From positions 1 through 64,000 of the forward strand of contig NGBS01000334.1 of assembly GCA_002245135.1 (NCBI GenBank): 64,000 nucleotides of DNA, in the 5' to 3' direction. This stretch comes from Proteromonas lacertae. Lineage: Eukaryota. The position numbers and the translations under genes were made by a program. Below, piece by piece: positions 6,380 through 58,559 of this stretch. Positions within the stretch are counted from its first letter, which is position 1. Each line of letters opens with the position of its first letter. Below the pieces are notes generated by a model. It was not told the origin of the DNA. It saw only the letters and a program-made list of their open reading frames with translations, and did not search any database.

Positions 6380-7935
6380 TTAAGCTACAGTTGCTAATTG
6401 AGGTACTGTTTCTTCTTTTACAGCTATTGGAGCTGTTGGTAATTCAACTGTAACTGTTGCAGGTTGGCCTTCCTTCTTTAAAGGAGCAGCTTCTACTGGA
6501 ACTGAATTACTTACTTCAGTTTCTTTAACTGTGGTTGTACTACTTTCTGGTAAGAAGAAGAAACAATAAACAGCTGCAAAAGCACAAATTGCCATAAATA
6601 TGAAGAATACTACTTTTGAACCAACTGCTTTTTCTAAGATTGGGAATGTAAATGATATTACAATGTTGGCAAGGTTGTTAACTGTTACAGATACACTTAA
6701 ACCACTACTACGAATGGAAGATGGGAAAGCTTCGCTTGCTACAACCCAAAATAATGGACCTGGTCCCCATTCAAACATGAATAAGAATATGATAATTCCA
6801 ATAATTGATAAAGCTGTTACATTTGTTACAAAACTAATTGCCATCACCAAATTACCAATAGCTAATCCAAAATAAGTACCAATCATCAAAGTTCTCCTTT
6901 TGAATCTGTCAAGGAATGGCATAGCTAAAGCTGTACTAACAAAGTTCCATAAACCAACTACACAAGCTGTTGCAATATAAGGATCACTGATTCCAGCTTT
7001 ATCTAATATTGTATTACTGTAAAACATAATGGCATTAATTCCACATAATTGAGCACAAGCACCAAAGATTACAGCAAATGAATACCATTTTATTTTACCA
7101 GCTGTATCTACTTTTTCATCATCTTTCTTCACTGATACATTTGTTTGATTTACTCTCAGTTTTTTACCATTCTTTTTCTCTTTCTGTAAGTTTAACCATA
7201 CTTCGCTTTCTTTAGTAAAAATTAAGCAAACTAATAACAAGATACCAGCAATTGCACCAATAGCATATTGAATGGACCATTGCCATTTTTCAAATGGTTT
7301 ATATTCATCATAATCATCTTTACCAAAACCTAAATTGATGAAGTAACCAAAGGCCATGCTTAAGGTTACTACTAGCTGCATTAAACTTCCGATTCTTCCT
7401 CGATATTTTGCATCGACCGTCTCTGTGACATACATAGGACCTACACAAGTGCAAAGTCCTACAGCAAATCCAAGAATTATTCTCATTACAAACACTGCCC
7501 AATAGTTCTCGATGATTGCTAAAATTATTGGTATTATTGTCAAAATAACACCACCTAAACCTAAACTCTTACGACGACCAATCTTATCAGCAATCCATAT
7601 ACCTATTGTACTACCAGCAACCATACCGAATAATAATGCTGAAGTGTATAGCCCCTATCATTTTATAAATATATATAGTATATACATAGTACACAGATAA
7701 TAAATTTTCATCCTCTAAATTATCAAAGTAGGTGTACTTGATAATCTGAACTTTCAAACCACTGACAATGGCACTATTATATCCTAATGCTAGACCACAT
7801 AGTGAGTTAACGAGACCTATTTATATGAATATATATTCATTAATTAGATTGTGAGAATTATAAATTAAAGAAATAGATATAATAAACAGGGGTATTTGAT
7901 AGATGTATACCTGGAATTAATAAATCAGATAACAT
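6380..7935 (-). CDS. MFS sugar porter (GLUT-like), copy 1
   Basis: ATG at 7935 (MLSDLLIP), three short 5' introns. Motifs DKIGRR, YVTE...RG, AQLCGINAIMFYS, DRFKRR, WGPGP, SEAFP, LPES. Confidence 0.92.
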
Positions 7936-7984
7936 AATTAACCAAATATTCTAAATTGTTAAGAAATTTGGAAATGAAGAAACA

Positions 7985-7995
7985 ATATCGATTCA
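7985..7995 (-). promoter_or_regulatory. TGAATCGATAT motif upstream of sugar porter copy 1
   Basis: Variant of the TGAAYCGRYAT motif found upstream of the GH3 and porter copy 2; about 50 bp before the ATG. Confidence 0.5.
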
Positions 7996-8305
7996 CAAAA
8001 TTGAAAACGTTTCAAATCTATCCAATAGATTTATTTTATAAAATACAAAATGATTAACAAATATATATGCTTAAATTATTACTGTGAGAAATATTTGCGT
8101 AGTAAAAGTGAGATAAATCAACAAAGTTGTGATTTATTAATTTTAAGTCAATCCTTTATAATTGTGTATATAGAAAAAGACTAAAAGAATAATATATACA
8201 AAACTATCAAAATAGCAGATTAATAGAATTTTTAAGAAATTAATAACATTTGTATAAGAAATAACTAACACCACTAAATTGGAAAGTTTGACTTTAATTT
8301 AAACG

Positions 8306-8686
8306 TTAATACTCATTTTTAATATTTTTTACGCTATTTTTCTTCTGTTGGTAAATCAGGTTTTTCACAGTAGTATTATCAGCTCTTTCTTTTTCTTTCT
8401 TCAATCCATCAGCTGATATATCATTAGCTGATTTTTGGATTGTCTTTTTCTTGGATGTTAACCTAACCAGTTTTTCATCATTATTACCTTCAAATACTGG
8501 AAAACGATTTGAACCACAATCATCATGACTATTTGATTTAGGATTTATTTTAGATTCATTTTCTATTACAAGCTTATTTGTATCAAGATTGGACCACGAA
8601 ACTAAATTCACCTTTGATGTCTTAAATATTCCACAGCAGCTAAAGGTAGTACCTAAATCTATTCCAATTCTTTCTTTGTTAGTCAT
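8306..8686 (-). pseudogene. Heavily deleted Hsp70 relic
   Basis: MTNKERIGIDLGTTFSC (Hsp70 phosphate-1 motif) joined to short pieces resembling later Hsp70 segments (FPVFEG, DISADG, NLIYQ), about 126 aa in total. Confidence 0.65.
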
Positions 8687-9446
8687 AAAAAGAAGAAAAG
8701 AAAAATCAAAAAGAAAGTGAGCTTTCATTTATTAAAACTGGATGGCAAGAGATTCAGTATAACCATTTTCATTCAGTTTACCAACTTTTATATCATCATT
8801 CATTTTACATCTCATTATATTATTCATTGTTTTAAATACATCATTTTCTTTCTTATTCAACATCTCATATAATATACAGCAAAACAATAAAACATTACAC
8901 TCTTATCATTATACTCTCTTCCACTCATTTCTTCTGGACTTCTGTAACATATTTCATCTATTACTATTTCTTCTCATCTTCTTATTTGATTCAAACATAA
9001 ATCAACCAATTTCACTTCATTATTTTCATATATTACACTCACATAACATCATTAATATATTACTCAAATATCACTTCAACTCAAATATTTTCTAAATGAC
9101 ATTCGTTATATTATCTTCTACATATTATCATATTTTAAATTCTTTTAATTCTATTTCAACGTTTCAGAAAAGACGCTTATAAAAGCATATACTGCAATCA
9201 AACAAGATAATCCATTTCTAATACCAACTGAAACACAAGTTGTTGTTTGAATATATATATCCTCTAAAAAGATTAGAATTAAAAAGATTTATAATATATA
9301 TTACATGCATGAATATTTATGATTTTTAAAAAACAATATATTTAGCAAATAATGAATTTTTAAGAGTTTTAAAATCAAAAAAAGTTTGACGAGTTTGTCA
9401 TGTTGCTTGGGAAGGCTTGAGTATATTTTTTAAAAATTTTAATAAT

Positions 9447-11029
9447 ATGGCAGAAGTTAGCACAGAATACTATCATTATCCAAGAACATTTAGTCAATAT
9501 ATTAGATTGATAGTCATTATAGTATTATTGAAACAATCTAGTATCTAATAGTTTCTGAGTTTAATACTTTTAATATATGGTATAGAAATGCTAAATAAAT
9601 CTTCATCTATGGGTATAATTAGAATAATTCTTTTTTCATTAGGTTTTAATGTAATCGGTAAATGGTTAGGAATTTATTCCATAATATGTTTTTGTTGTGT
9701 TATAATATCTACCTTAATATATATTTATTTTACAGAATATATTGTAATACATTTTTATAACACAAAAGATTTATTATTGTGTATTCCTTCATTATTTATA
9801 TCAATAACATGTCTAATATTTATTTTAACATCTTATTATTCTATATCTTATGAAAAAATCGAAGAAACAATTAAAAAATGTTGTAAGAATGATACAAGTA
9901 TTAATTTTAGTCAATGTGATTTTATGGAGAAATATGGATGTGAGCCTTATTGTGGTAATATAACACATAGACAATTTGATGGTATTGTAATTAGATGGAT
10001 GTTAATATTTGTTTCTGTAATGTGTATATATGTAATTGCATCAGTATATATATTCATTATTATCATTGTTATTAATATTATTATAAATATCTATAAAAAA
10101 TATAGGGAGAATATTGTCATTACACTTCTAAATTGATTGAAAATGAAGGAAAAATTCCAGAAGAAATGATAAGAAGAAAGAAAATTGAGAAACTAGAGAG
10201 AGACATGAAAAATAATACCACTCCAGAGAAATATATTAAAAAGAGATTGAATGAATATTCGAATATAAATGAATGGAGTTGTTTTACTGAAAGAACAACT
10301 TCATTATCTGTTTATAATAAAAGATTAATTATAACAACAATAATATTAAGTGTATGATTATTGAAATATATGTATAGATAATATCCTGTATCTCAGTTGG
10401 ATTAAGTTTATATGAATTAATATTTACATATAAATTTGGTTTTAATCTAATTTCAAAAGATATATATATATGTAAACTAATCTTATCATCGTTTGTATTA
10501 ATCTATTCAGTCAACTATAAAAGAATATGTATAAAATGTAATGAAAATAGAAACAAAGGTTATGACAATTTAAAGAATCTGATTTTATTGATTTATTTAG
10601 CTGTAGGTATGTGTATATTTGGTTATAATTATATGAATAATTCCAAATATAATTATATGTCAAATTATTCTGAAACCTATGAAAAATGTTGTATAAATCA
10701 TGTTTCATCCAGCAAAGTATCTATCTATAATATAATATAATATAATTATATGTAATTAAAAATAGTGTGATATCTTACCAGAAAACAGTTGTAAAAGTTT
10801 TGGTTATTATGTAAATGTTCTTAGACAAAAGGATAAATTATTCTTAAATAATACAAATGATTTAAGTATTATTTTGGTTGGTATATATTGTGGAGTTATT
10901 ATATTGAAAATTGTATATATGACCAGAGAAGAAGCAAGAGAAGAAAAAATGGAATTTGAGAATTTCTTGGTAGAGCTTGGATATAGTAATATTTTAAATC
11001 AATACAATTTACTTTATCACCACCAGTAA
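9447..11029 (+). CDS. Multi-pass membrane protein with Cys-rich loops (tetraspanin-like, possibly a tandem pair); exon structure uncertain
   Basis: Hydrophobic helices around the loop KKCCKND..QCDF..GCEPYCG; a second EKCC-containing segment and a TM near 10680-10920; stop at 11027-11029. Confidence 0.35.
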
Positions 11030-14616: not shown

Positions 14617-16199
14617 ATGTTAGAAGATTTAGTAATTCCAGGTATATATTAACTTCATTTATAAATTATATTTTTGTTTATATTAAATACAGTTTTAAGT
14701 CTAATATATTCACTTTAAGAATATTTATTTTATTATATAAATAGCTCTTGTCAACTCACTTTGTGGTTTAGCACTAGGATATAACAGTGCTGTTATCAGT
14801 GGTTTTAAAACTAGAGTAATTAAGTTCAACTACTTCGAGAATTTGGATGAAAACAGTGATGAATATACTGTGTACGATGTATATTTCAAAAATATAATTT
14901 AAATGATAGGGACTTTACACATCAGCTGCTTCTTTTGGTAGTATAGCTGGTAGTACATTAGGTATATGGTTAGCTGATAAATTTGGTCGTCGTAAGAGTT
15001 TGATATTAGGAGGGTTTATCTTGACAGCCATTCCAGTAATTTTAGCAATCATCGAGAACTATTGGGCAGCGTTTGTGATGAGAATAATTCTTGGATTTGC
15101 TATAGGTCTGTGTAGTTGTGTTGGTCCAACTTATGTAACAGAGACAGTAGATGCAAAATATCGAGGAAGAATTGGTAGTATGTATCAATTAATTGTAACA
15201 TTCAGTATGGCCCTTGGTTATTTCATTAATTTGGGTTTTGCCAAGAATGATTATGACACAAGTAAGCCTTTTGATAAATGGCAATGGTCAATTCAATATG
15301 CTATTGGTGCTTTTGTTGGATTATTGATATTGATTTGTTGTATGTTTGCAAAAGAAACACCAGTATGGTTAAATAAACAAAAGAATGGAAATTCTGAACA
15401 AAGTCAAACCAAAGTAACAGTAACAGAAACAATAGATACAGCTGGTAAAATAAAATGGTATTCATTTGCTGTAATCTTTGGTGCTTGTGCTCAATTATGT
15501 GGAATTAATGCCATTATGTTTTACAGTAATAAAATCTTAGAAAAAGCAGGTTTAACAAATCCTTATATTGCAACAGCTTGTGTAGTTGGTTTATGGAACT
15601 TTGTTAGTACAGCTTTAGCTATGCCATTCCTTGACAGATTCAAAAGAAGAACTTTGATGATTGGTACTTATTTTGGATTAGCTATTGGTAATTTGGTGAT
15701 GGCAATCAGTTATGTAGCTAATGTAACTGCTTTATCGATAGTTGGATTGGTTATTTTCTTATTCATGTTTGAATGGGGACCAGGTCCATTATTTTGGGTT
15801 ATTGCCAGTGAAGCTTTCCCATCTTCCATTCGTAGTAGTGGTTTAAGTGTATCTGTAACAGTTAACAACCTTGCCAACATTGTAATATCATTTACATTCC
15901 CAATCTTAGAAAAAGCAGTTGGTTCAAAAGTAGTATTCTTCATATTTATGGCAATTTGTGCTTTTGCAGCTGTTTATTGTTTCTTCTTCTTACCAGAAAG
16001 TAGTACAACTGCAATAAAAGAAACTGAAAAATCTAAAGCCACCACTACAACAATAAGTAGTAATGCAGTTCCAACAACAACCGAAGAGAATTATGTAAAG
16101 AAAGAAGGTCAACCATCTGTTACTACAGTTGAATTACCAGCAGCTCCAACAACTGCCACAAAAGAAAATGGTGAATCTAAATTACCAGTTGTTGCTTAA
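14617..16199 (+). CDS. MFS sugar porter (GLUT-like), copy 2
   Basis: ATG 14617 (MLEDLVIP); same intron pattern and motifs as copy 1; near-identical 3' half. Confidence 0.92.
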
Positions 16200-25657: not shown

Positions 25658-28600
25658 ATGAGTAATTCAGTGCATCCTACTAGAGCATTTGTTATTATCG
25701 ATGTGCAAGTATTAAATATATCATATTATTTATAGAACGACTACTTTGCTAATGGAGTTTGTCCAATAGAAGGCGCTGAGGATATTCTGCCGGTCATTAA
25801 TAAATTAAGAAGAAAAGATTTTGATTTCACTATTTTAGTTCAATTATGGCATCCTATAAATCATTGTTCCTTTTCCTCAAATAATCCTGGCTATCCTCCC
25901 ATGAAAGTAAGTCATATACCAGATTTAGGTCCCCAAATGTTATGGCCAGATTACTGTGTTGCTGGAACTTATGGAGCAGAATTTCATCAAGAATTACTTA
26001 TTAGACATTCTGATATAATAATCCAATGTGGAAATAATCCAAATATCGATAATTATTCAGCATTTCGAGAAGTACGAAAAGATAATCAAAGTTGTATGAT
26101 TAACGAAATAATCACCCAAAACAATATAAAAGAAATATATTTCTGCGGATTAGCTGTAGAGTATGGTATACAATTCAATATACTCGATTGTAACATCTTT
26201 GCAACAGGTTGTCAAATATTTTGTATTACTGATGCTTGTAAAGGTTTTAATGAAGAAAAAATGAAAGAAATTCTAACCAAATTAGAATACGAAAAGGTAC
26301 ATACAGTCAATTCAAATGGACCAGAAATGCAATTAATAGCTGATATAGAAACACGTGTGTTAATAACGAATAATATAATAAATATTGTCTCATGTAAAGG
26401 AACAACAAATTATGAATTATCCACTCATCCATTGGAAGTAGGTGATAAATTGTGGTTGGATATGAAGAATAAATGTACAAAAATGAATAGTATGGTTGAA
26501 GGATGTTATTATATAAAAGGAAATAACAGTGATCATACAAATACTTCAGCTGATTTTTTAATTCTTTCACCAAAATCAAAGTGTTTATTATTTATTCTTT
26601 GGCCTGCAAGTAATAAGAAAACTACATGGTTATCGAAGAATTTTGAATTTCAAAACCAATACATTAATACTGATAGTTCCAATATAGTGTTAGAAATATG
26701 GAAAATGAAAGAATCAATTGGAGCTGGTGAAAGAATGTATTTAGGTGGAGCTGAAGGTAATCTAGTTGATAAACAACATTATAATTATATTGTTTGTATA
26801 AAATCCCAACGTATATTTTATATATATATATATATATAAATTTATTTTTATTTTTATTAATATTATATATATATATATATGTATAGCACCTGATGTAAAT
26901 GATGTAGTACATGCAATATACTATGAAACAGATGAAACTCTGAGGACAATAATGAGTAGTTGTGGTGAATTGGATAATCACTTACCTCCATTGAGTAGAA
27001 CACCATTTCATGCAGCTGTAGTAGCCAATAGAATCTTAGCAATTGATATATTATTAGAATGTGGTATAGATATCAATGCTCCTGATATAAATGGAGATAC
27101 TCCTTTAATATTAGCTTGTAGACTGAATAGAATAGAGATAATAGAAAAAATGATTATTGAAAAGACGTTAAGAGTAAATGCAGTTAGTAAATTAGATAAA
27201 GGAAGTGCTTTATTAATAGCTTGTCAAATGGGAAATACGAAAGCTGTTCAATTAATTGCAGATCATGGTGCTTTAGTAAGTGCTACAAATAGATATAATA
27301 CAACTTCATTAACATTTGCATTTTATCACCACGAAGATATAGCTTATAGAATAATTAACATTTTATTTGCACATACGAATAATAATGAAGAAAAATCATT
27401 TCTTTTACAAGAACAAGATAAATTCGGTTGGAATGCAATCACAGTAGCTGCAAGAGTTGGATTTTTACATAAAATCAATTTTTCAAAATTTCCAGGTTTG
27501 ATAGACAAAGTGTCTGTAAATTGTTATACCAAAAGAGGTTTTAGTTTATTACATTATACATCATGGAATTGTAATTTAGATGATATCAATATGTTAATAG
27601 AAAATAGTCATTATTGGAAGGAAGAATTAGAATTAAATACAATTAGTGAAGAAAATGGATATAGTGAATTAGATTTAACTATTTTAAAAGATAATAATGA
27701 ATGTAGTAGAACTTTAGTTTTAGGTGGATCACATGCTACAATTTGTACAGGACAATCCATTCATCGTTTATTATACTATATGATTACAATGGGAGAAAAT
27801 AATGTAGTAGAAGGCTTGTTGAGATTTGATGATAATAAGTTTAATATTGACGAATCATTGATAAAATATACGAAAAGAACGAAATATATTGGCAGTTGTA
27901 CATTTTCATTTGCTAATTTTACTAATCCCATAACACAGCATATGTACAGATGTGTTACTTGTGATACTTTGATATGTAATATTTGTAGATTGAAATGTCA
28001 TAATGGACATGAGATATTATATAAAGGATTAGTAAATGATACTTATTGTTTTTGTCAAAAATCAACTTGTCAAGCTTTGCTTGGTGTAGATAAAAGAGAA
28101 ACGGAAGGTTATAAATACGTTCCAAATCCAATTGATACTTCATCTGTACAAGATAATCCAAACTTGGATAAATTAATTCAATGTTTAGCCATTAATAGTC
28201 ATGAAGTATGGAGTCAAGAACATATTGAAGATGGTTGGAGATATGGTCAACAAAGAGATAATAAAAGACATATTCATCCTTTACTTTTACCATGGAATTT
28301 ACTAACAGATGGTGATAAAAAGTGGGATTTAGAATCTGCTAAACATAATATAAGATTAATTGAATATTTAGGATATGAAATTATATGTGAAAGTGAAGAT
28401 TATTCAAATGCATTTTTAGATGAATGCAGTATGAATTATGAAGGTGGTAAATACAATCCAAGTCCATTAGACACTTCAGAAGTTCAATTGACTGATCAAA
28501 TGTTAGTATTAGTTCAATTATTAGCTAAAAACAGTCATGAAGAATGGGCAAAAAGTAAAATAGACAATGGTTGGAAATATGCCCCAGAAGGTAAAGATAG

Positions 28601-31600
28601 TGAGAAATTATCACCACTTTTAGTTCCATATGAATTATTATCAGATGAAGAGAAATTATCTTCACAATTAAATGGAATTGAAACTATTAAAGGTATTTGT
28701 ATGTTAGGATATAATATTGTTTATAATGGAGATGAAGAAGCTCAACTGACAATGAATTCATTATTCAAAGGTGATGAGTATGCGTCATTAAAAGAGAATA
28801 TGGCAAGAATGGAGGAGGTAAGACATGATTTCTTTAATTTATATTTATTAAGAGCTTGTAGAAATGATCAAGTTGATATTATACCGAATTTGGTTCAAAG
28901 TGAACAGCAAGTAATTGCGAATATAAATATTCAAGATTCTTATGGACAAACTCCGTTATATGTTGCTGTAAAGAGAGGCAATTATTCTACAGTTGAATTA
29001 TTGTTGAAATTACATGCGAATATATTCATAAATGATAAAAATGGAATGACTCCTTTGATGTTAGCTGCATTCTTAGGAAATTATAAAATATGTGAATTGT
29101 TACTTCAAAATAATGCGAAAATATTTGCTAGAGATATAAATGGATTTACTGCAATGTATATATATATATAATTTATATTTTATTTATAATAGTCATCATG
29201 CTTGTGCAAATGGTCATTCAAAAGTATTAGAACTGTTATTATCAGAAAAGTATGTAGATATTAACTACTTATGTACAATCAAAGAAGAAGATAAATGGAA
29301 AGGAAAATTCAAAAAGAAACAGAATATTTCACCTTCCAATTCATCAAAAGTTTTACCCTTAGAGAATGATGAAGATACTTCCAAATTCAACAAAACCATT
29401 AAAAATCAAGAAACAATTGCTGAACTTCCAGTAGATTCTACTCCAGCAACTATTACACCAACATCTACTATAAATAAAGATAAAAATAAAGATAATAAGA
29501 ATAATGAACCATGCTCTACTTCATTTATGCAATCTACATCTCAATACCAATCAACTTTTTCATCTAATCAACCGATTAGTAATAATAAAGTGTCTATAAA
29601 AATAAATAAATCTTTAGATGGTTCTAGACCAAATACTCCTTCAAAATTGAATATTCTAAAGAAATCTAATTTTCCACAATTGCTAATACAAAACCAAACT
29701 AATAATCAAAGCAATCAAAGTAATAACAACAATAATAATCAAATATCTCAATCTTTGACACGTATTCCAGAATTATCATTTCCAGAAACTGATAATCCAG
29801 CAATTGATTCAACAGCAACTCTTAAAAAGAGCCACAAGAGAAGTTTATTAAACAAATTATCAGCAATTGAAGGATTCAAATCAGCAGGAACAGGAGGAGA
29901 TAGTTTGAAAACAACTCGAACAGCAAGATTAAAGCGAAGATCATCAATCATGAATTCACCTTCTTCTCCACAAACCAATTCTCCAGCAAGAATATTGAAA
30001 TCACCAACTGCCGAACTAATGACAAGTAGGAAACTAGCTAATACAAGTGATAATTTATTCTTATCATCCAATCCAGTGATTAATACTCCATTATGTTTAT
30101 ATAACCCACTGAATTTAGCAGTAAAAGCTTCTAGAAGAGAAGTTATAAAAGTATTACTAGATCATGAAGCAAATCCAAATATCAGAGATGGAACAGGCAT
30201 TTCTCCATATAATAGAGCTTTAATGAAAAGAGCAGCAGCTGCAATATATGAAAGAGATAAAATAGAGAATGAAGAAAGACAATTCAGAGAGATGTTGGGA
30301 GATACAAGCAAAGCAACTGCTATAAAGAGATTCTTAAAGAAATATTGTTGTTGTTGTTTTAAACGATGTGTGAATGAATCGAATGAACTTGAAAAGGAAG
30401 AGAAATCGATGAAAGAAAGTTCAAAATCGATTTTACTAGATGAAGAAGCTTCATTAAAAGCACCAAATCCTCAACATAAACAAGAGAGTAAAATGAAAAT
30501 AAGAGATAAGTGGATTTCTACATTATCAAAACCAATTAAAGAAAGAAAAGATGATAGACAGATTGCTAATATGCAATTAGCTTCTAAAGTCGTTGATGAT
30601 TTAGCAACAAGTGAAAATGTACAACAAAGAAGATCTAGATTTGGTTTATGGCAATTCTTTAAAGAAGGTATTATATTTTTAGGACTTTACATTTTGTTAT
30701 TATCATTTACATCAGCATTCTTTGATTATGGAACACAAAATGTATAGTCATTTATTTATTTATTTATTTATTTATTAGGAATTATCATTTGTTCAAATAA
30801 CTGATCAAGATTTAAAAGACAGTGGTTTTACTGATATATTTTCATTTGATGACTATAATAATTGGGTTATTACATATCTTTTTAATCCATCTGGAAATGG
30901 ATTAATACAACCGCCATTATATCCAAGTATTTAATATTATTTATATTTATAATGGAATAGATACAGCAGCTGTTTATCATGAGAATAATTACGTATTTGG
31001 AGCAGCAAGACTATCAACTATTGAATATAAGAAAGTAGTTTGTAAATCAACAGAATATTTAGATTTAAGTAATTTACACTATGCTTGTTACAAAGATAAT
31101 GATGATGAAAGTGCTCCAGTAGATATTCCATTGACTGATCTATCATTAGCAAGAACAAAATATGAATCATTATTGAGTAATGGATTAATCACTCATGACA
31201 CAAAATCAATCTCATTTTATATAAATATGTTCAATCCATCTACTTCAAGGTTATGTATATTAGAAATGACAATTACCAAACTACCAACAGGTGAGTATGA
31301 GAGTAAACATGAAGCAAAGACAACTAGATTTGGTGATGATCGATTTTCTCCATCAAGATCATTTGAAATTGTTATTGGATTAGAAATTGCTGTTGAATTA
31401 TACTTCAAAGTGAAATATATCATCCAGAGTAAAGGAATTGGTGAACAATTCAGTGATAATTGGCTTATATATGAATGGTTATTGTTAATTGGTCTATTTA
31501 TTTTATTATTATTAGATTTGATTGTGTATGCTCAAGTATCAACTGATTCAATTCAATTTACTGCTGATACATACACTGATTTTTCACATTCAATGGATTT

Positions 31601-32554
31601 GATTAAAGGAGAATTAGATTTAACTTCAATTATTACATTTTTATTTGGTTTAAGATTTATTAAATATCTTCGATTAATCCCAGTATGGGGACCTATGGTG
31701 TTGGCTGTGATTCAATCAATTAGTGCAAGAGATGTGCTTTTATATATTTTTGTGTTCTTTTTAATGATGATTATTTTATGCTTTTCTTATGATGTTTCAT
31801 TTGGAGTGGAAGTGGAAGTATTTTCTCAATTAATTACTTCATTCTTTGAACTTTTCTGCTCTTCATTTAATCAAGAATATAGCAGAACTTATGATTTAGA
31901 TAAAAGACCATTATTTACTATATATTTTGTTATTTATGTGTTATTATCATTAATTCTAGTGAACTTATTTGTAGGTATTATTTCAGATGTATATTTATGA
32001 TTTTATTTTATTTTTTTATTTAAAATAGATTTATCCCAAAGTTAGAGAAGAATCTGAAATCACATGGACAATTCTTATGGCAGAGTATATGACAGACAAT
32101 GTCGTTTCAGATCAAAAATTAGAAGGAGGAAATACAATTAGAAGACCATCAATCATATTTGAATTATTAGAGGAAGATCATTGGGGCAATTTGATGGAAG
32201 GAAGAGATGGAATAATCTATTGGACGCCTAATGGACTTTATAGTCCTGAAAAGGAGAAGAAAAAGAGAAAGAAGGTTGAGAATAAAGACAATAAAGATGA
32301 TAATAATGGACCAGAACTGAATGAGACTGCTGATATGATTTTGAAGGAAGTGAATAGATTGAAAGCTAATTTTACTATTCAACATGAAGCTATTGATGGA
32401 TTAAATGATAAAGTATATTACTCTCTGTGTATATTTCAAATAGATTGCGAAAATCTTCGAGTTGCTCCAAGAAGTCAATGAAAATAGTAAGAAATCAAAT
32501 GTGATAGGAGGAAATCAAACATTATTATTGAAGAGAAAGAAAACTAGAGGTTAA
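25658..32554 (+). CDS. Multidomain cation channel: nicotinamidase-like, ankyrin, UBR-type Zn finger, two RyR repeats, ankyrin, polycystin (PKD/TRPP) channel
   Basis: IIDVQNDYF...CVAGTYGAEFH; ankyrins GDTPL, GQTPL, GMTPL; YRCVTC..ICNICRLKCHNGH..CFC; two LAxNSHExW..GWxY..PLLxP RyR repeats; FIKYLRL...LILVNLFVGIISD. Joined across short introns. Confidence 0.85.
26817..26882. repeat. Intronic (AT)n microsatellites (similar runs at 16915-16940 and 20628-20646)
   Basis: Direct reading of TATATA runs inside short introns. Confidence 0.8.
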
Positions 32555-44958: not shown

Positions 44959-45063
44959 ATAATAATAGTAAATAAAGGTTCTGGCACACCGAGCCGCATG
45001 ACTCGGGCTACTGGCACACCAAACCAAACTTTTTAAAAATACGTGACCTATGTCATATTAGGT
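44959..45063 (+). repeat. Left TIR of the Polinton-like element
   Basis: ATAATAATAGTAAATAAAGGTTCTGGCACACC...TGTCATATTAGGT; reverse complement of 58124-58228 with 2 mismatches; contains a CTGGCACACC direct repeat. Confidence 0.95.
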
Positions 45064-45167
45064 AAATTATTATTTTTATTCTTTTTCATTTTCTTGTTTC
45101 TTTTGATTGAATATAATTAGTTAGAATTATTTGAATTGTTATCCTGATTATAATTTGCAAAAAAAAA

Positions 45168-45225
45168 AAGGGAGGAGACTTTCCCATTCTCAATCTCAAA
45201 TGAGAATGGTAAAGTCTCCTCCCTT
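45168..45225 (-). terminator. GC-rich 25-bp hairpin (1 mismatch, 8-nt loop) followed by a T-run on the minus strand
   Basis: GGGAGGAGACTTTCCCATTCTCA-atctcaaa-TGAGAATGGTAAAGTCTCCTCCC, next to the A-run at 45159-45169 and about 95 nt downstream of the stop at 45319. Terminator function is inferred. Confidence 0.45.
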
Positions 45226-45318: not shown

Positions 45319-46580
45319 TTAACATTCATCATCAGAAATAATGATTAATTCATGAATTATTTGTTCTTTCTTTTTTTTTTCTTCTTCTTCTTGTTTTCTC
45401 CTAATTCTACTAGCTTCTACATCTCTAGTAAAGAAATGTATTCTTTTCTTCTTCATTGTTACACTGATAGGATTATATATACTTTGTTGAACTTTATTAT
45501 ATCTCATTATCATTTTACTAACAATAGAATGTAAAGTATTTGTTTTATCTTTTGTAATAGTGACTTCACATTCGCCATTAATAATTACATTTTTTAATTT
45601 CAAGTTAATTACATGTGGTACTATATCTTCATTCAATTTATAATCAATATTATGGATAAATATATTACAAAATGGATTAACTTCTGTATTATATATTCTA
45701 TCATTGATATCACTTCTGAAATTAAATAAACCTTTATCATCTATATGAAATGTATAATATATTATTTCAAATTTATTATCTTGTAATATTTTGTTGCTAT
45801 AATTTGAATAAATATTTGATATATAATAATTAATTAATCTTATATTGAAATTTAAACTATAACTATAATCATTATATTTATTTATAATAATATCCATTAT
45901 ATCTACTCCTATATTTGAAATAATTGAAAAATATTTCATCTGAATGCATTTCCTGACAGATTTGATATACACCAGATATGGATATATTTTATTAAATACT
46001 ACTTTGCTATATTGAATAGATAAAATGAAATCCTCAATTAAATGCAATATTAACATAAATTTATAATAATTAGCTGATATGCATTCTTTTGTTATTTCTG
46101 TATATGTTGTATTAATAAATGATAAAGTATTACTCTCCATACTATCTGTAATATATATTAATGTTAAATAATTAACTAATTGTTTAATACAATAATTGCA
46201 ATCTTCTTTTATTAGCTCAAAATCTAAATCTTTAATAGGATAAAAGTCATGATCAACTAAAATTATAAATATATATGTAAATTATACTGTGATTGATATT
46301 ACCTTCCCAATTTTCTTCTTGTTCTTCTTCTTCTAATACATTTCTTTTAATATCAACACACTTAGTCCCAATGGGACATTTTGATGGCACATGATCAGGC
46401 TATTAAAATTAAAAAATATAGTAACATATACGTTAGGACCTACTCTTATAGCTGTAACAGTTTTGGAAGGATGTGTTGACATTTTATCTGAATGATTGTA
46501 TTTCTATACAATTAAATTATTAAAAATAATACTTTCCCCATGTTGCATCTTATACAGCAGGTTGGCTTTGTTCTTGCCAT
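45319..46580 (-). CDS. Five-exon element gene, 369 aa; N-terminus MARTKPT (histone H3 tail-like), C-terminus LIIISDDEC (SIM-like)
   Basis: Exons 46580-46533, 46503-46432, 46399-46303, 46256-46191, 46145-45319. GT-AG introns of 29, 32, 46 and 45 nt splice in frame with no stops. Confidence 0.8.
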
Positions 46581-46722: not shown

Positions 46723-46998
46723 TTAAATAGTTTGTTTATATCTACCTATCTTTGAGTTTATATTTGATTTGCGTTTCAAAATGTCATTAATTTCAATCTG
46801 ACTTTTTAAATTGTTGATAGTTTCTTCATGAGCAAGACCTCTCTCTATAATCTCATTCATATTGACTCTCATATCTGACAGCTCTTGTGAATTAGGTAAG
46901 CAATTGTGAGATTTCATATATTTCCACAATGCCATAGCTATAATATAGAGAATAAAGACTAAGACGCTTAGAAATATGTTAAAATAATCGTTTTCCAT
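46723..46998 (-). CDS. Small element protein with N-terminal TM helix and coiled coil
   Basis: IFLSVLVFILYIIAMALW, then heptad-like LSDMRVNMNEIIERGLAHEETINNLKSQI. Confidence 0.6.
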   Translation of the reverse strand: MENDYFNIFLSVLVFILYIIAMALWKYMKSHNCLPNSQELSDMRVNMNEIIERGLAHEETINNLKSQIEINDILKRKSNINSKIGRYKQTI

Positions 46999-47082: not shown

Positions 47083-47721
47083 TTAATACATATAACCATT
47101 ATTCAAACTATCATTGAATAGATTGTTGTAACTCATATAACATTCATCACGTGCGATATCATTAATGCTATCAAGAGATAGATTGCTATTACTATTACTT
47201 TCTCTATTATTTAGAGAATAAAGCGTATTATAATTACTATTTATTACTTTTGATGTGTTTTTAATAAGTGTCTCAGATGGGATTATCTTCTTGACTTGTT
47301 CATTTAGATTAATTATCTTCTTTAATTGTTGTTGAATATTTTGTTGGTTTTCTATAATCCTTTTTTGACCCATAGTCCTCTTCTCTTTGTTATTAAAACT
47401 TCTAATGAATGATGATGATGAGAATGGAGGTAAATTGTTCTCATCTATTGCGAATTCTTTACTTAAGTCTCTAAACCATAAGCCTTTTTTAAGCCTTTCT
47501 TCTACATCGCATTGATACTCTGGATCAATGTACTGTAGTATATATCTAATTTCGTTGTATGTGAGTTCAGACTTCATACCAGAGATGTAATTATAAAGTT
47601 TAGTTCTAGTGGGAGATCTAATTTTACCATCATTTCTGAAACATCGCATTATTATATGCTTATCTAAGTTATTCAAACATAGATTAACCTTTTTAGATTG
47701 CTTAGAATTTTCTACGCTCAT
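47083..47721 (-). CDS. Element orphan protein (possible helical DNA-binding domain)
   Basis: ATG 47721 (MSVENSKQ), 212 aa, divergent from the capsid genes. Confidence 0.55.
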   Translation of the reverse strand: MSVENSKQSKKVNLCLNNLDKHIIMRCFRNDGKIRSPTRTKLYNYISGMKSELTYNEIRYILQYIDPEYQCDVEERLKKGLWFRDLSKEFAIDENNLPPFSSSSFIRSFNNKEKRTMGQKRIIENQQNIQQQLKKIINLNEQVKKIIPSETLIKNTSKVINSNYNTLYSLNNRESNSNSNLSLDSINDIARDECYMSYNNLFNDSLNNGYMY

Positions 47722-47830: not shown

Positions 47831-48820
47831 ATGATTCCTTATGAACATCGTACTTATTACCTTAATTCTGATATGGTATCTTCTGCTAATCAGTTTTCTA
47901 CTAAGTATAAAAAAGTTTTGCATTTACCTGCATTCGATGAAGATTATTCTGACATTTCATTGAAAGACTGTGTTATTCCTAATAGTTTTCCTACTATACA
48001 AGAGGATACTAATGACACTTTCAGTATATTCATAGATTTACAAGTTAATCCATGTTATGGATCTTATAAATTTGATAGAGATGAATTATATAAAGGAGTT
48101 AAAATACCAGAAGGTTTTTATACTCAAGATCAAATACTTAAGATTATTAACAATGTATTCAAAGATATTACATTAAAAGATTTTATGCCTTATAATGAAG
48201 AAGTATTATCAGAGGATGATAAGAATATGCAAATGTTTATAGGTGATGTATTTGAAATAGATGATAAAGATGATTTTCAAACTAATCACTTACAAATAGT
48301 TGGTAAAACAACAGTCTTATATGATCCTGTTAGAAGTAGTGGTAAATATAGTTATCCAATATGTTGGATTAAAACTATTAAAATAGTTACTAAGGATTTA
48401 GCATATAAATATTTTGGTATATCAAAGAAAGGTTATTTTGATTGTTATAATCCAGAAGGTAATATTAAATTTGAACCAGGTATGATTAAAGATAACAAAG
48501 AAAGATATATTGAAAGACAATTACCATTAGTTCAATTACCTTTCAGACCTACTTTAATATGGGTTACTTCCATTACTATTAGAATGGATATAGTAAATAT
48601 AGATCAAGATAGTCATGTTTTAGATAGTATTCCTATAACAAATCCTGAATCAAGTTTTATCACTTATCAGAATTATGATATTTTTAATACTAGTAAAAAG
48701 TTTAATAATACTTATAGTAATGGTCAGATCATTTTGCAGATTACACAGCAAAATGGTTATGAGTTGAATTTAGATAATATAGAGTTTTGTATGAGTATTG
48801 TTGTTTTTAAAAGAACTTAA
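47831..48820 (+). CDS. Minor capsid (penton) protein, Polinton/PLV type
   Basis: YYLNS..F...ISLKDCVIPNSFPTI, IPEGFY...I, and C-terminal LDSIPI...ITYQN..ILQITQQNG.ELNL..FCMSIVV pattern of single jelly-roll pentons; directly upstream of the MCP. Confidence 0.75.
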   Translation: MIPYEHRTYYLNSDMVSSANQFSTKYKKVLHLPAFDEDYSDISLKDCVIPNSFPTIQEDTNDTFSIFIDLQVNPCYGSYKFDRDELYKGVKIPEGFYTQDQILKIINNVFKDITLKDFMPYNEEVLSEDDKNMQMFIGDVFEIDDKDDFQTNHLQIVGKTTVLYDPVRSSGKYSYPICWIKTIKIVTKDLAYKYFGISKKGYFDCYNPEGNIKFEPGMIKDNKERYIERQLPLVQLPFRPTLIWVTSITIRMDIVNIDQDSHVLDSIPITNPESSFITYQNYDIFNTSKKFNNTYSNGQIILQITQQNGYELNLDNIEFCMSIVVFKRT

Positions 48821-48856: not shown

Positions 48857-50185
48857 ATGTCTTTATCTATTCCTAAAGAACAAAAACATGGTGTAGAGAC
48901 ACCTGTTATGCTTCCTTTTTATCAGTATGTAAAATTAAGTCCAGTTGGCTCAGCAAGTGATTGGACTATAAATGGGGATACATATACTCAAGAAATAAAG
49001 TTTGAATTAAGCGGAGATAACATTATTAACTTGTCTAAGTCTTACATACAGTATGATCATGTTATTAGAACTACGCCAATTAAAAAAAGTGTGCAAGCAT
49101 GGACTGGTGATGCAACTAGTAATATAGATAGTTATCCTAATTGCATAAAAGGATTAAAAGAAGGTTTTGGTATTGCTTCATTCAGAATATGCAATCAGAC
49201 AGGTACAGATTTAGTTAGAGTGGATGATAGTTATGAACCATATCGTATATTTATGGATGAAATTGTTCGTAAGAGACCAGATCAGTATTATCAAGCAAAT
49301 TATTATGATGGTATTAAATTGAAATGGAATGATAAAATTAAAGATAAAGTTATAGAAGATGAAGCTGAGTTTGCAATACCATGGAATAATAATAATAAAA
49401 TAAAAAATTCTGACGGTGATCGTTATACATATGATAATGAGCCAGAATTTAGATTACATGTTAAAATACCTTTAGGAAGATTTTATAATACATTTGCAGC
49501 AATGAAAAGTGATGTATTCTTTGCAGAACGTATGTATATATGTATTAAATTCCAAACTATTGATAAATTTGGTCCATTTAAATCTTATGCTAATAAAGCT
49601 ACTTTTAAAACAGCTGGCGATGCTTTAGATAATGCATGTACTTTTAGAACACCAGAAGTTGTTGAGAATAACATAAAAATAGAAAATATGAGATTTTATG
49701 CATATTATAATAAAGATAGTCAATGCAATAACAATACTAAAAACTATTGTTTATCTAAACCAATACAATTCAATGATTTTAGATGTCATCAAGTTTCTTA
49801 TAGTTCTCCTAATGGAATATTCAATTATAGTTTTACATTGAATAGTTCTAATGGACCATTTTTAAGATTTATTATTTATAGACCATGGGATGAAGACGAT
49901 AGTAAATGGTTACGTATACCAGAAAATGCACAATTTAGATGGATGATAAACGACTTTGTTCATCAACCAGATTATGCTTTAATGCAATATTATGATAGTT
50001 ATATGATGGTACAAGATTATTTTAAAGATTCTTGGTATGATGTTTTCAGACAAGATAAAAGTTTCAATGAGAAATTTTTCGAAATTTTAAACTTTGGTTC
50101 AAGAGATTTAGATAATATTAAGAATCAAGCAGGTAGACCTTTAGCTGCTGATTATAAAATCTTCTGTTTGCTTGATACGCTCTAA
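48857..50185 (+). CDS. Major capsid protein (double jelly-roll), C-terminus possibly truncated
   Basis: About 442 aa, beta-rich; EIKFELSGDNIINLSKSYIQYD and VKIPLGRF resemble PLV/virophage MCP motifs; context inside the TIR element. Confidence 0.7.
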   Translation: MSLSIPKEQKHGVETPVMLPFYQYVKLSPVGSASDWTINGDTYTQEIKFELSGDNIINLSKSYIQYDHVIRTTPIKKSVQAWTGDATSNIDSYPNCIKGLKEGFGIASFRICNQTGTDLVRVDDSYEPYRIFMDEIVRKRPDQYYQANYYDGIKLKWNDKIKDKVIEDEAEFAIPWNNNNKIKNSDGDRYTYDNEPEFRLHVKIPLGRFYNTFAAMKSDVFFAERMYICIKFQTIDKFGPFKSYANKATFKTAGDALDNACTFRTPEVVENNIKIENMRFYAYYNKDSQCNNNTKNYCLSKPIQFNDFRCHQVSYSSPNGIFNYSFTLNSSNGPFLRFIIYRPWDEDDSKWLRIPENAQFRWMINDFVHQPDYALMQYYDSYMMVQDYFKDSWYDVFRQDKSFNEKFFEILNFGSRDLDNIKNQAGRPLAADYKIFCLLDTL

Positions 50186-51460
50186 AATAAGCATTTCTAT
50201 CTTGCGCTCTTTCTACTAATTCTAATTCATAATGCTTAAACCTCTGATTACTAACATTTGGTACAAAGTTACCATTAGTATCACCTATTTGATAAGAAAA
50301 TCTAAACTTATTTATAATCATATAAACATCATCACTCCAAGTAGTTATTTTATCTAATTGTCTTCTTCTTTCTTTAAATCTAACATAGTCACCTACTTTA
50401 AATCGTTGTTTATCTTCTAGTTTAAATTCATTATCTACATTTTTATTTATGCTTTCAACTAATACTCTTTTCTGTAGTAATTCAGAATGATATACTTCAT
50501 TAGGAGTATATCCTTTTAATGCAGGATGAGGTTTATTATTATAATCTTGTACTACTTTATATACTTCATGATTAAAGTTAGTAAGCCACTGATTCATATA
50601 TGCACTAGGTGGAAAGCTTTTAGCATGAGTTTGATTTCTATAACGAAAAGGATCAGGAAAGTCTATTTCAACAAGATGTTTATATAATAATTTTTTAACC
50701 ATAGATACACTTCTATCTAATACACTCATTATTCTATGTTCTGAAGGATTCTTTTGATAAGTATTTATACCTTCTGTATCACAAAATTCTTTTATTTTAT
50801 TAAAACTATCATCTTGATCACTTAATATACTAATAACTCTTCTTTTAGCTACTATCTTAGGTTGATAGTTTGGATTTAAAAAGCTTCTTGATCTTCTTTA
50901 TAATACCAAGAAAAGAAAGCATTTAAACAAGTATTTCCATCTTCTCTTTTCAAAGGTACTACCCATACTTTTCGAGAGTTAGTTTCAATAAAATACAGAT
51001 GATGTGTTTCAGGTAAAAAATAAACTATATCCATCTGGAACCAACCAGGCTTTTTAATACTAACGAAAGGATTATCCTTTTTATACTGAAAGTCTACTAT
51101 TTGATGACCAGGTTGTCTAGCTAAAAATTCTTTTATAGCATCTATAGGTGGTGGTACTTCATTATTATCTGCAGGATTCATTACCATTTTAATAAAATCT
51201 CTATCGCTTAGATAATGATATTTATTATATAGTTGTTGTAAACGATTTTGATATTGAGAATATTCAGGATTAGGATATAATTTATAGTCAGTAGTAGGAG
51301 GTTCTCTAGGTATACCATCTCTACCATAATTCGTATAATATTGCAATGATTCAGGATATTTAGGTTGTTTAGGTAAATGTTGTATATTTTTATCCATTAA
51401 GTTACCTACATCATTCATAGTATTAAAAAATGCTTTAGCAGGATCCCATCCGAAATACAT
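50118..51460 (-). CDS. Retroviral-like (rve) integrase, Polinton type; 1-bp frameshift near 50878
   Basis: WFQMDIVY..FIETNSRKVWVVPLK, ILSDQDDSF (bridging frame), SVLDRSVSMVKK, YNNKPHPALKGYTPNE, FKVGDYVR..WSDDVY..ELELV. Confidence 0.88.
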
Positions 51461-54500: not shown

Positions 54501-56399
54501 TTATTTTTAGGATCTTCTCTATTATATCCTATCATTTTTTCAGGATTTTTTAATTTTTCTTCATATAAATCTAATATTTCTTTTTGTATTTCCATAAATT
54601 TAGCTATTAATCTATCCTCTAAATCTGTTTCATTATCTTTAGGTGTTTTAAAATCATACTCAATTTTATTAGGATATATATTAGGATATTTTGATACAAC
54701 ATATAAACACCAACTGGATAATATATGCTTTGATAATATACCTTTCTCATTTAAAATTGGATCTGTTACTTTCTCCTGATAAACTTCAGTATCCCAATAT
54801 ATTACTATAGGTATTAATTGCAGGGAAATTTCTTATAATACCTTTATGTTGTTGACAATTATATTTTTCATGTTGTATTCTTTTTTCATCTGTTGATAAT
54901 AAAGCAAAACAATAATTACATCTAGGATAACCATTTTTACACTTCTTTCCTTTAGGTATTAATATTACATTTAATTTTGTAATAGTAGAATAATGTTTAT
55001 CATTATATAATAAATTCACATGTGGATAATTATTGAATTTATCTATATGTGTTACATATATAGGAACTACTTCTTTATCTGTTATTTTGAATATATTTAA
55101 TGTTATATGATTTATTGTTTCAAATTCATGAATTTGTTTTTTATGTTTTATAGGATCTACTGGGAAATATAACATACTATAATTGTAGTTAACTCTAATA
55201 TATTCTTTATATTGTTCTACTCTATTTAAATTCTTATTATTATTATTACCATGAAAAAATGCTGCTGCTATAGCATATAGAAAACATAATTGATCATTTT
55301 CTCTATTATTATCTATTGATATAACACATTTTCTATTTCTAATCCAATCTGGAAGTTCTTTATTTTTGCCACTACCTGCCATAGCAGTTGCTTTGACTAA
55401 TTGAACTTCAACTTCACCAACATGTCTAAATTTTAAACTTGATTTTTCAGTATGCCATAAAGGTCCCATTTCTGTTCTTATTCTATCTTTTAATATTTTA
55501 TGAGCTACATTCATTTCTGATTCTGTAATAACTACAGGTCTACATTCTAAGAATACCCAATTTGTAATTTTATTACCATTTGGATTATTATAATCTGGAT
55601 CGTCTGCTCCTATATAACCACTTCTAAAACTTAATGTTACTTTTATATATTTAACATCTTCCAAATATTCTCTTATTTTAGTAATTAATGGACTACTAGG
55701 ATCAGTTATAATTTCAACAACAGCATCTGGATCTTTACCATTTACATCATTTAAAAAGTTAATTTGATATGTTCTACTATAATTATCTGTACTTCTCTGA
55801 ATTAAGTCCATATAATATAATCTCTTTTCATATGGTAATTTTAATAATTTAGTAGGATGATTTTCTAATATATCACTTGCTTCTCTTAAATCTCTTTCTT
55901 CTTGATAAGATAAATTTAAATCTGCTACTCTATTACGCTGTTGTGCATTTGGTGGAGGTTGATTAACAACAACAACAGGTTGATTTGGATTAGGATTAGG
56001 ATTAGGCATTTGAACTTGCATACCTCCTTTTCTTTGTATTTTTGGAGGACTTATGTTTTCAAAATCTAATCTTCTCTTGGGAGGTGGTGTTACAAATCCT
56101 GGTTCAGGAATATTAATTTGAGGTGTTGAATCTACTCCTATATTTCCAGGATAATAATTAAAACCAGGATTTGTATTTGTAACTAGATTTCTTGGTGGAA
56201 CATAATTTCTAACTACTGGAATATTTGGAATAGGTGGAGGCGGTTCATACATATTAGGAGGTGCCATACCTGGATATGGCATGGGCATGGGATTAAATCC
56301 ATAATTTTGTGGAGGAGGAATATAAGGTGCTCCAAATGGTGGTGGACTATAATAATTAAAGTTTGAATAATAATAATAAGGAGGGATGAAAGGGTTCAT
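51533..56399 (-). CDS. Protein-primed family B DNA polymerase (Polinton type, with endonuclease VII-like Zn module); five frame breaks
   Basis: CFLYAI; ExoI IYWDTE; HHDHFSGQYIGRICNNCN; ExoII HHSKNYD; DSYQFL; KGYFPYEY; ExoIII YLRLDV; motif A DYNSLYP; GYILEVD; motif B KLILNSAYGK; motif C SDTDS; PKMY; AKGV. Confidence 0.93.
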
Positions 56400-56644: not shown

Positions 56645-57118
56645 ATGAGTAATTTTGCTAGAGTATATGAATTCTATGTATTCTTTGATGTACTTAAAAA
56701 TTATATTAGTAGTTTAAATGATATAAGTAGAAGGGTCTATAAATTAAATCTAAGTGAAAATTTAAGTAGTAAAGATAAAACAGATCTAAGAGATAAAATA
56801 AAGTCTTTTGTAACTTTCATACAAAATATCGAATTGAAATATAACAGAAGTAAAATAGCAACCACATTTAACAAATCTGAATTAACATCTTATAGACTGG
56901 ATATTATAGAAGACTTAGAAAAATTAATTAATAAACTGGACACTTTCTATGTAGAAGATTTTGCATATATTTCTGAAGAAGATTTCAATTTGAATGCAAA
57001 TACTATTAAAAATTTTAGATATATAAAAAATCATTATCTCTATTTAATCGATACAAATTCAGAATTAAATTCTATATATAATATTTTTAAAACCAGATTG
57101 GAAGATGATAAAGACTAA
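56645..57118 (+). CDS. Element orphan alpha-helical protein (157 aa)
   Basis: Clean intronless ORF divergent from pPolB. Confidence 0.6.
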   Translation: MSNFARVYEFYVFFDVLKNYISSLNDISRRVYKLNLSENLSSKDKTDLRDKIKSFVTFIQNIELKYNRSKIATTFNKSELTSYRLDIIEDLEKLINKLDTFYVEDFAYISEEDFNLNANTIKNFRYIKNHYLYLIDTNSELNSIYNIFKTRLEDDKD

Positions 57119-57126
57119 TTAATTTT

Positions 57127-58080
57127 TTATTTGATTTTTAACATATTGTTTAAAGTTGGTATTATTTCATTTAATTGTTTTTCTAATTCTTTTTGTAAAT
57201 ATTGACTTGCTTTTTTTTTTCCTTCTAATCTTCCTATTTGATGTAATACCATATCATCTAATCCTAAATTGTTGTTCCCCGTATGGCGGAAATCCCCGTA
57301 TGGCGGAACTCTATATTGCAGAATGATTCAATCAAAACTAATATGATATTCATGATGTTTGGAGTTAGTTATTAACAAATATATAGTTAGTTTGTCATAT
57401 GACCTACATCTGTGATATACTTTTTTATGAACTTCATTATTATCAATATTAAACTAATTTTTGTATATTTTCTATTTTAATGTATCAGTCACTACTACAG
57501 CCTAAAATACATTATCTGATATGAATAGAATACATTATTTTTAATGTTAAGGCGGTTAAAAAAGAAAAAAGAAAAAATAAGTTCAAGCCTCACTCAAGCC
57601 TACTCTTTAATTTCCTTTTTTATTACCTAAACAATAAAAATAATGTATTCTATTCATATCAGATAATGTATTTTAGGCTGTAGTAGTGACTGATACATTA
57701 TAATAGAAAATATACAAAAATTAGTTTAATATTGATAATAATGAAGTTCATAAAAAAGTATATCACAGATGTAGGTCATATGACAAACTAACTATATATT
57801 TGTTAATAACTAACTCCGAACATCATGAATATCATATTAGTTTTGATTGAATCATTCTGCAATATAGATTTCCGCCATACGGGGATTTCCGCCATACGGG
57901 GAACAACACTAAATGATATTCTTCATTTAATTCTTTTAATTTTAATATAATCTCACATGCTATTTTAATTGATGTTTGATAGTCATTGCTCCCATCATCT
58001 TTCTTATTGAGATATACATTACACATTTCATATAAAGAATCAAAACCATTTTCTGCTTCTTCTTTAATTAGATTATCCAT
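57127..58080 (-). pseudogene. 102-aa element orphan gene disrupted by the foldback insertion
   Basis: Removing 57270-57908 and one TSD copy fuses MDNLIKEE...EEYHL to GLDDMVLHQIGRLEG...MLKIK* in frame. Confidence 0.85.
57270..57908. mobile_element. Non-autonomous foldback/MITE element, TGTTG...CAACA ends, 274-bp TIRs, 6-bp TSD CTAAAT
   Basis: Arms 57270-57543 and 57635-57908 (3 mismatches), 91-bp spacer, CTAAAT at 57264-57269 and 57909-57914, subterminal tandem 17-mer TCCCCGTATGGCGGAAA. Confidence 0.93.
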
Positions 58081-58123
58081 ATATGAAATTAGAATATTCT
58101 AGAAAATGCAAAAATAAATTATG

Positions 58124-58228
58124 ACCTAATATGACATAGGTCACGTATTTTTAAAAAGTTTGGTTTGGTGTGCCAGGAGCCCGAGTCATACGGCTCGGTG
58201 TGCCAGAACCTTTATTTACTATTATTAT
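58124..58228 (-). repeat. Right TIR of the Polinton-like element
   Basis: Reverse complement of 44959-45063. Confidence 0.95.
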
Positions 58229-58257
58229 ATATAATACCAATTTTATAACCTAAATAG

Positions 58258-58559
58258 ATATTGGAATGAGTATGAAAGGATTTAGAATGTTAATAGATAG
58301 ATTAAAGTTTTTTAAACTCATAAGAAATTTGAATATATCAGGAAATGAATTGAATGAAAAAGGATTAAGATTAATGAAAGAAAATGAAAGAATATTTGAT
58401 GGTTTAAGGGAATTATCAATAACTGTAAGAGAAGGTGTAGATAAATTTGAATTAAAATCATTCTTAAAAACATTCTCATCAGTTAATACAATCAAACTAG
58501 ATGGAATTTCAGAAGAAGAAAAGAAAGAACTATCAAAAGCATTCTTCAATATTCAATAA
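58258..58559 (+). pseudogene. Orphaned last exon of an RI-like leucine-rich-repeat gene
   Basis: IRNLNISGNELNEKG, LRELSI and VNTIKLDG LRR units follow an intron-acceptor-like TAAATAG; no 5' exons are found beyond the TIR. Confidence 0.55.

Follow-up and report, generated by a model that had tools for sequence, protein, structure and literature searches.

Several cellular proteins begin with a short imitation of the histone H3 tail. VRK1, BCL11B and PCLAF have in common an M-small-R-x-K start that is freed by removal of the initiator methionine (PMC8166343). In that study, trimethylation made all seven of the M-Z-R-X-K peptides tested bind H3K4me3 readers, and NuRD was bound by several of them in the unmethylated state (PMC8166343). 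Viruses also carry histone mimics, among them influenza H3N2 NS1 (ARSK), adenovirus protein VII (AKKRS) and bracovirus H4, which share a short motif resembling a histone tail (PMC6028506). In the herpesviruses, the single proven SUMO-interacting motif (SIM) of ICP0 is IVISDS, which is related to those of DAXX and IE2 (PMC3174244).

Little is established about the ways in which integrated viruses of the Polinton type evade or control silencing by the host. Candidates that have been described are the TET-like demethylases of Polinton-like viruses (10.64898/2026.06.19.733378). Accessory proteins of this class that carry short host-type motifs beside cysteine pairs have been described as the ‘Oncoid’ proteins of adintoviruses (PMC8502044), and introns are known in Polinton-like elements both as introner insertions (PMC12166617) and as group I introns (PMC12220804). 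In punuivirus, host-style spliceosomal introns are found in a minority of the genes of an integrated virus and are enriched among its latency genes (10.64898/2026.10.09.758095).

The gene considered here brings several of these features together. It lies in a 64-kb stretch of DNA, the whole of which was analysed and is termed the window below. Its sequence partly supports a candidate spliced gene within a Polinton-type element, with an H3-like predicted N-terminus, NLS-like patches and a SIM-like end. The preferred reading, to which a probability of roughly 0.35 is attached, is that this spliced accessory gene of a defective provirus would encode a nuclear effector or decoy made of short motifs, shielding the provirus from host silencing. 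It is possible, though doubtful, that the protein would act as a two-ended decoy in a latency/reactivation switch of a Polinton-class virus, in which copies of the free H3 N-terminus and of a DAXX-type SIM would break the link between H3K4 readers and SUMO-dependent silencing.

The window is gene-dense, with about 20-34% GC per kilobase, and presumably derives from a flagellated protist. Its eukaryotic genes include sugar transporters, a GH3 glucosidase, a HECT ligase and the ciliary protein CFAP52. Two sugar-transporter paralogues (6380-7800 and 14617-16199) lie in inverted orientation and are 94% identical across 603 nt, and a large predicted host gene (26952-32554) joins ankyrin, RyR and polycystin-type channel domains. 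A gene model was trained on host genes only, blind to the claim about the target, and 19 models were retained. Host introns are tiny: the retained models contain 78, of which 58 shift the reading frame, mostly with lengths of 25-40 nt; 46 of these 58 start with GTAT and 44 end with TAG. This reference set derives from our own gene model and includes some false introns. Scored in this way, host introns had a leave-one-out median of 6.6, and 1071 control GT-AG segments on the coding strands of the element reached a maximum of 4.8.

The element is 13.3 kb long and is bounded by 119-nt inverted repeats (44959-45077, plus strand; 58110-58228, minus strand) that are 94% complementary; no clean target-site duplication was found at its ends. 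Inside the repeats, the target gene (45319-46580, minus strand) is followed by a 91-aa ORF whose product has a hydrophobic stretch at the N-terminus (46723-46998, minus), a 212-aa ORF with no family match in Pfam or PHROGs (47083-47721, minus), a 329-aa ORF that would be the minor capsid protein by its position alone (47831-48820, plus), a double-jelly-roll major capsid gene (48857-50185, plus), a likely retroviral-type integrase (50118-51460, minus), a protein-primed family B polymerase (PF03175; 51533-56399, minus, in six segments) and a 157-aa ORF with no family match (56645-57118, plus). The capsid protein has eight relatives at 32-67% identity, and its structural model (pLDDT 50) gives 38 Foldseek matches at E <= 0.001; among those listed, all are capsid or scaffold proteins, mavirus included. 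A polymerase relative at 70% identity is present in the same collections as the capsid relatives. The polymerase is colinear with an intact 1673-aa relative, P0024, to which it aligns in six segments, and P0024 also has the long, Pro/Tyr/Asn-rich N-terminal extension seen here at 54786-56399. The integrase assignment rests on an rve match of E = 0.08 that is split across two frames. No packaging ATPase or maturation protease was matched by Pfam among the element's ORFs, and a search with Rfam found nothing in the element.

The first-pass annotation had called the element a Polinton-like virus. The terminal repeats, the capsid and the polymerase bear this out, but the annotation passed over the state of the copy, which is defective. 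The polymerase has five breaks, at one of which 14 residues are missing relative to the 1673-aa protein. The capsid match stops at residue 439 of 479, the gene being truncated at about position 50161 in comparison with its relatives. A small ORF is interrupted by a nested foldback element (57261-57917) with arms of about 307 nt that are 95% complementary, flanked by a 6-bp duplication. We take the TGT...ACA ends of this insertion to suggest an integrase-type transposon. Assembly errors may account for some of the breaks; genuine decay is the apparent cause of the deletions and the insertion. The capsid and integrase genes overlap tail to tail at 50118-50185, the place at which the capsid diverges from its relatives. 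This points to a deletion, possibly with loss of more genes; the ATPase and protease were possibly lost with this deletion at the 3' end of the capsid gene. The polymerase breaks were also considered as introns. This was rejected because conserved residues continue directly across most junctions, and one junction lacks 14 residues; the introns that the host-trained model placed in the polymerase are artefacts.

Two features lie close to the terminal repeats. The short hairpin with the strongest signal in the element (45168-45225; z = -7.9) has a 25-bp stem and a T run behind it. It is near the left repeat, about 95 nt past the target stop, with the T run on the strand of the target gene, and may be a transcript terminator or the relic of a small insertion. 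Directly past the right repeat begins an exon, leucine-rich-repeat-like by eye (58254-58559), with no clear 5' part in the left flank; a host gene may have been broken by insertion of the element.

For the target gene, four GT-AG introns on the minus strand had been proposed, at 46532-46504 (29 nt), 46431-46400 (32 nt), 46302-46257 (46 nt) and 46190-46146 (45 nt), joining an ATG at 46580 to the last exon in a protein of 369 aa. These do give a coding sequence of 1110 nt with no internal stop, whose product begins MARTKPT and finishes ELIIISDDEC. Frame-compatibility alone is weak support, however, because the same ATG can be connected to the same stop by 98 strict and 3280 loose combinations of introns. 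The blind, host-trained model likewise chose the ATG at 46580, together with introns 1 and 2; for intron 3 it took a 31-nt form (46257-46287) from donor 46287, and it read through intron 4. It also added one in-frame intron in the target gene, which is regarded as spurious. Introns 1, 2 and the 31-nt intron 3 score 10.9, 11.2 and 7.7, respectively, all above the control maximum, and the score of intron 1 exceeds that of 90% of host introns. The 46-nt intron 3 from donor 46302 fares poorly, its score of -2.7 being equalled by 17% of control segments. The start and the first two introns of the earlier model are supported, intron 3 most likely uses donor 46287, and intron 4 is optional.

Exon 1 (46533-46580) has 16 codons, with ARTKPT at 46560-46577 followed by C8, C9 and C12. 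It is separated by intron 1 (GTAT...TAG, 10% GC) from exon 2 (46432-46503), which has 24 codons and is in phase 0 on both sides. Intron 2, also GTAT...TAG, precedes exon 3, which with the preferred donor spans 46288-46399 and encodes H43-x4-C48 and then an acidic run. Exon 4 of the earlier model is placed by splice reconstruction at 46191-46256; an F-box reading of this exon was dropped, having no Pfam support. The last exon (45319-46145) encodes an orphan core, the basic patches KKKR (45442-45453) and KKKK (45367-45378), a charged helix and, one residue ahead of the stop, the SIM-like IIISDDE (45325-45345). Its ORF of 273 codons is real, the longest stop-free run in 2000 shuffles being 92. 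No in-frame splice path (up to three introns of 21-70 nt) connects the MARTK exon with the 91-aa gene upstream of it, and a possible 37-nt intron just 5' of the ATG adds no upstream in-frame start. The statement that this is the only visibly spliced gene of the element is correct for the genes that could be tested, the capsid and polymerase being colinear with intronless relatives.

The treatment of intron 4 determines whether the two ends belong to one protein. The 45-nt form (46146-46190) is in frame and stop-free and scores 3.3. An alternative 31-nt form from donor 46176 shifts the frame and would give a protein of 121 aa without the SUMO-type motif, which would speak against a decoy by separating the two motifs. 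It is rather unlikely that the motifs are in fact divided between this 121-aa MARTK protein and a 273-aa protein starting at ATG 46140, or that neither works, or that a decaying gene is no longer made. The intron concerned (46176-46146) is of the modal host length, and its score of 0.9 stands at the 24th percentile of host introns; the ATG is only 5 nt past the start of the last exon; the last exon has 20% GC against 36% in exons 1-3; and the element itself is decayed. Nevertheless, the GTTA donor occurs in none of the 58 frame-shifting host introns, compared with 46 of 58 for GTAT, and 320 codons are open from within intron 3 to the stop. The product may be of 369, 374 or 389 aa; 374 or 389 aa is likely, and the 121-aa form lacking the tail less likely. 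The intactness of the gene is no evidence for selection, since at the break rate of the element's other genes (6 in about 9.6 kb) there is an even chance of finding none in 1.1 kb.

Homologues were sought with the last exon as query, exons 1-3 being used as pieces only. A word-indexed search confirmed none of 730 candidates for the last exon; comparison with 1.84 billion representatives gave no homologue, and hence no cellular one, and none was found among metagenome and viral contigs or, as a family match, in Pfam and PHROGs. The best score in the ESM Atlas was 0.75, a lead at most, and single-sequence folding was uninformative (pLDDT 32). Relatives of the capsid (67%) and polymerase (70%) are present in collections where the last exon has none; either the last exon evolves fast, or it is confined to a lineage, or gene callers miss it. 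No DNA of close relatives of the element was found by capsid alignment, polymerase or terminal repeat. One distant element, L001, has 25% polymerase identity; M[AS]R[TS]K is absent from its six frames, and the sole tblastx segment over the target was dismissed, with mismatched strands and 22% identity. L001 carries three adjacent paralogous ORFs (8181-10042) and a shorter fourth (7715-8155) with a common MSVGSWF start, some of which overlap low-complexity repeat frames.

These searches bear on the origin of the gene. It could be a captured host gene, or its start could have been captured from a histone H3 gene, and be carried as a passenger; the host-style introns in an otherwise intronless element would fit such an origin, and H3 could be the source of the first six codons. 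Capture is nonetheless very improbable. The last exon has no cellular homologue among the 1.84 billion representatives. A scrambled H3-gene origin was rejected as well, the remainder of exon 1 resembling H3 residues 7-14 no more than shuffled sequences do (equalled by 11% of 600). In codon use, although this is a weak test, the last exon (-3.5 bits over 273 codons) is more like the accessory ORFs of the element than the host ORFs, all 13 of which score -11.8 or lower.

At the N-terminus, the claim of an H3 tail mimic is upheld in part. Given the predicted start, the protein fits M-[ACGPSTV]-R-x-K, and both ARTK-x-T and the free-N-terminus pattern M-Z-R-X-K are present. However, Pro replaces Gln5 and the likeness ends at residue 6, so that the match to H3 covers residues 1-4 and 6, five of the first six, and none after. 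A search with 20 residues as query, accepting E values up to 10, failed to retrieve any H3 chain. By composition, the probability of ARTK at positions 2-5 is about 5e-6 and that of ARTKxT about 3e-7.

Short words of this kind do arise elsewhere. In a scan of viral contigs that covered 58 of 64 parts, a pattern for the first seven codons gave 120 matches, of which 96 encode the Arg. In 12 of the 120, MARTKPT is a first-ATG start, counting ORFs of at least 60 aa, in about seven families by eye; one of these ORFs lies directly upstream of a phage terminase. The phage case establishes that the word arises at N-termini in the absence of histones. Another three of the 12 belong to T5orf172 proteins of a probable giant virus (L067 1346-2020; L037 1511-2020, minus strand; L117). 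In two of these proteins, which are 48% identical overall and carry a PVV repeat, the first seven residues and the NLS-like end PPSKRLK are retained. Their N-terminus may have been kept by selection or by shared cassette borders, and they are possibly a second ARTKPT mimic.

What follows the motif is also relevant. The spacing of C9-x2-C12 and H43-x4-C48 would allow a zinc knuckle with an insert after ARTKPT. Zinc knuckles are often preceded by basic residues. The spliced gene may then encode a genuine nuclear protein whose tail does bind SUMO but in which ARTK is a chance basic lead-in to the knuckle, supplying R-x-K, with no H3 mimicry. This account is tentative, but comes close to the preferred reading. 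In its favour are the unrelated viral ORFs, the phage gene included, that begin MARTKPT, the short extent of the H3 match, and the finding that the relaxed motif starts 48 of about 21,000 human proteins (PMC8166343). Set against it are the rarity of exact ARTKxT by composition, its occurrence alongside a SIM-like end and NLS-like patches in the element's single spliced gene, and the absence of any zinc-finger family match by Pfam in the scanned pieces of exons 2-3.

The C-terminus agrees well with the DAXX-like SIM pattern that had been reported for it. In IIISDDE, Ser and acidic residues come after a hydrophobic core, and the sequence is close to the IVISDS of ICP0; binding of SUMO itself is predicted from this likeness. 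A SIM-like pattern at the C-terminus has a probability by composition of 6e-4 to 7e-3, depending on the definition, and the tight DAXX/ICP0-like class one of 8e-6, this class having been defined post hoc. Even a loose SIM-like ending is found in none of the 19 host models. For both motifs together, chosen post hoc, the loosest joint probability is about 4e-8 per gene by composition. The two NLS-like basic patches, KKKR and KKKK, lie just upstream of the tail. The last exon contains no LxCxE, PIP or SUMO-site pattern, and LxCxE is not visible in exons 1-4 either. The Cys/His spacing does not fit a RING finger, which was not matched by Pfam in the scanned pieces, and no recognised DNA-binding domain was found by Pfam and related profile scans.

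Under the preferred reading, of a decoy that shields the provirus, host RNA polymerase II and the spliceosome would express the gene while the viral genome is integrated or in the nucleus, either ahead of the lytic genes or in their absence, host-style splicing implying transcription by the host polymerase. Removal of the initiator Met would expose A1-R2-T3-K4, and this free tip could occupy the pockets that receive the unmodified H3 end, of the PHD, ADD or RBBP4 type. The C-terminal motif would bind SUMO on silencing factors. With both partners tied up, the element would stay transcribable, as happens with herpesvirus proteins of the ICP0 and IE2 type through related motifs.

Both motifs could instead work to recruit repressors, the tip docking NuRD/RBBP4 in the manner of FOG1 and BCL11 and the tail engaging SUMO-linked co-repressors, with latency or host-gene repression as the result. 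Unmethylated M-Z-R-X-K tips do bind NuRD (PMC8166343), the latent programme of punuivirus is marked by intron-bearing genes (10.64898/2026.10.09.758095), and the possible zinc knuckle could contact nucleic acid. Recruitment of this sort is nevertheless unlikely, given that the scans contain no recognised DNA-binding domain and that the viral precedent for such a SIM, ICP0, counters repression (PMC3174244).

A motif-based decoy, if the preferred reading is true, would be a second route by which Polinton-type viruses deal with silencing, and would make H3K4 readers and SUMO part of antiviral silencing in a protist. The idea is cheaply testable with two short peptides. ORF-only annotation of such elements overlooks spliced regulatory genes; here, as had been pointed out, the ORF list shows the last exon alone. 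A literature search, mainly of openly accessible papers, gave no description of a Polinton with an H3-terminus mimic, and the accessible text of PMC12721341, 10.64898/2026.07.28.741278 and PMC11738798 contains no such mimic.

The known H3 N-terminal mimics (PMC8166343) are of cellular origin and have been shown to bind in vitro, whereas the present one is viral and predicted from sequence; moreover, the Pro at position 5 is found in none of the eight non-histone peptides printed in that paper. Among viral histone mimics, the NS1 motif is C-terminal and that of protein VII a loose match (PMC6028506), while here a free N-terminus is joined to a SIM-like end. Punuivirus is a giant virus with 61 of 506 genes of the intron-bearing kind and RNA support (10.64898/2026.10.09.758095), in contrast to one gene in a 13-kb element known from DNA alone. 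Oncoids carry LxCxE and are usually encoded upstream of PolB (PMC8502044); the target has no LxCxE. With HSV-1 ICP0 and HCMV IE2 it has in common a Cys/His-rich N-terminal part, an NLS and a SIM of the IVISDS type, the anti-silencing role being a conjecture in the present case (PMC3174244). The target has neither RING spacing nor sequence similarity to these proteins, and ubiquitin-ligase activity is not claimed. The ICP0 and IE2 genes are themselves spliced immediate-early genes. On sequence grounds, the target would belong neither to the ICP0 family, having no RING, nor to the Oncoids, having no LxCxE. Should the decoy reading be right, it would be the convergent counterpart, in a 13-kb virus, of the immediate-early anti-silencing proteins of herpesviruses.
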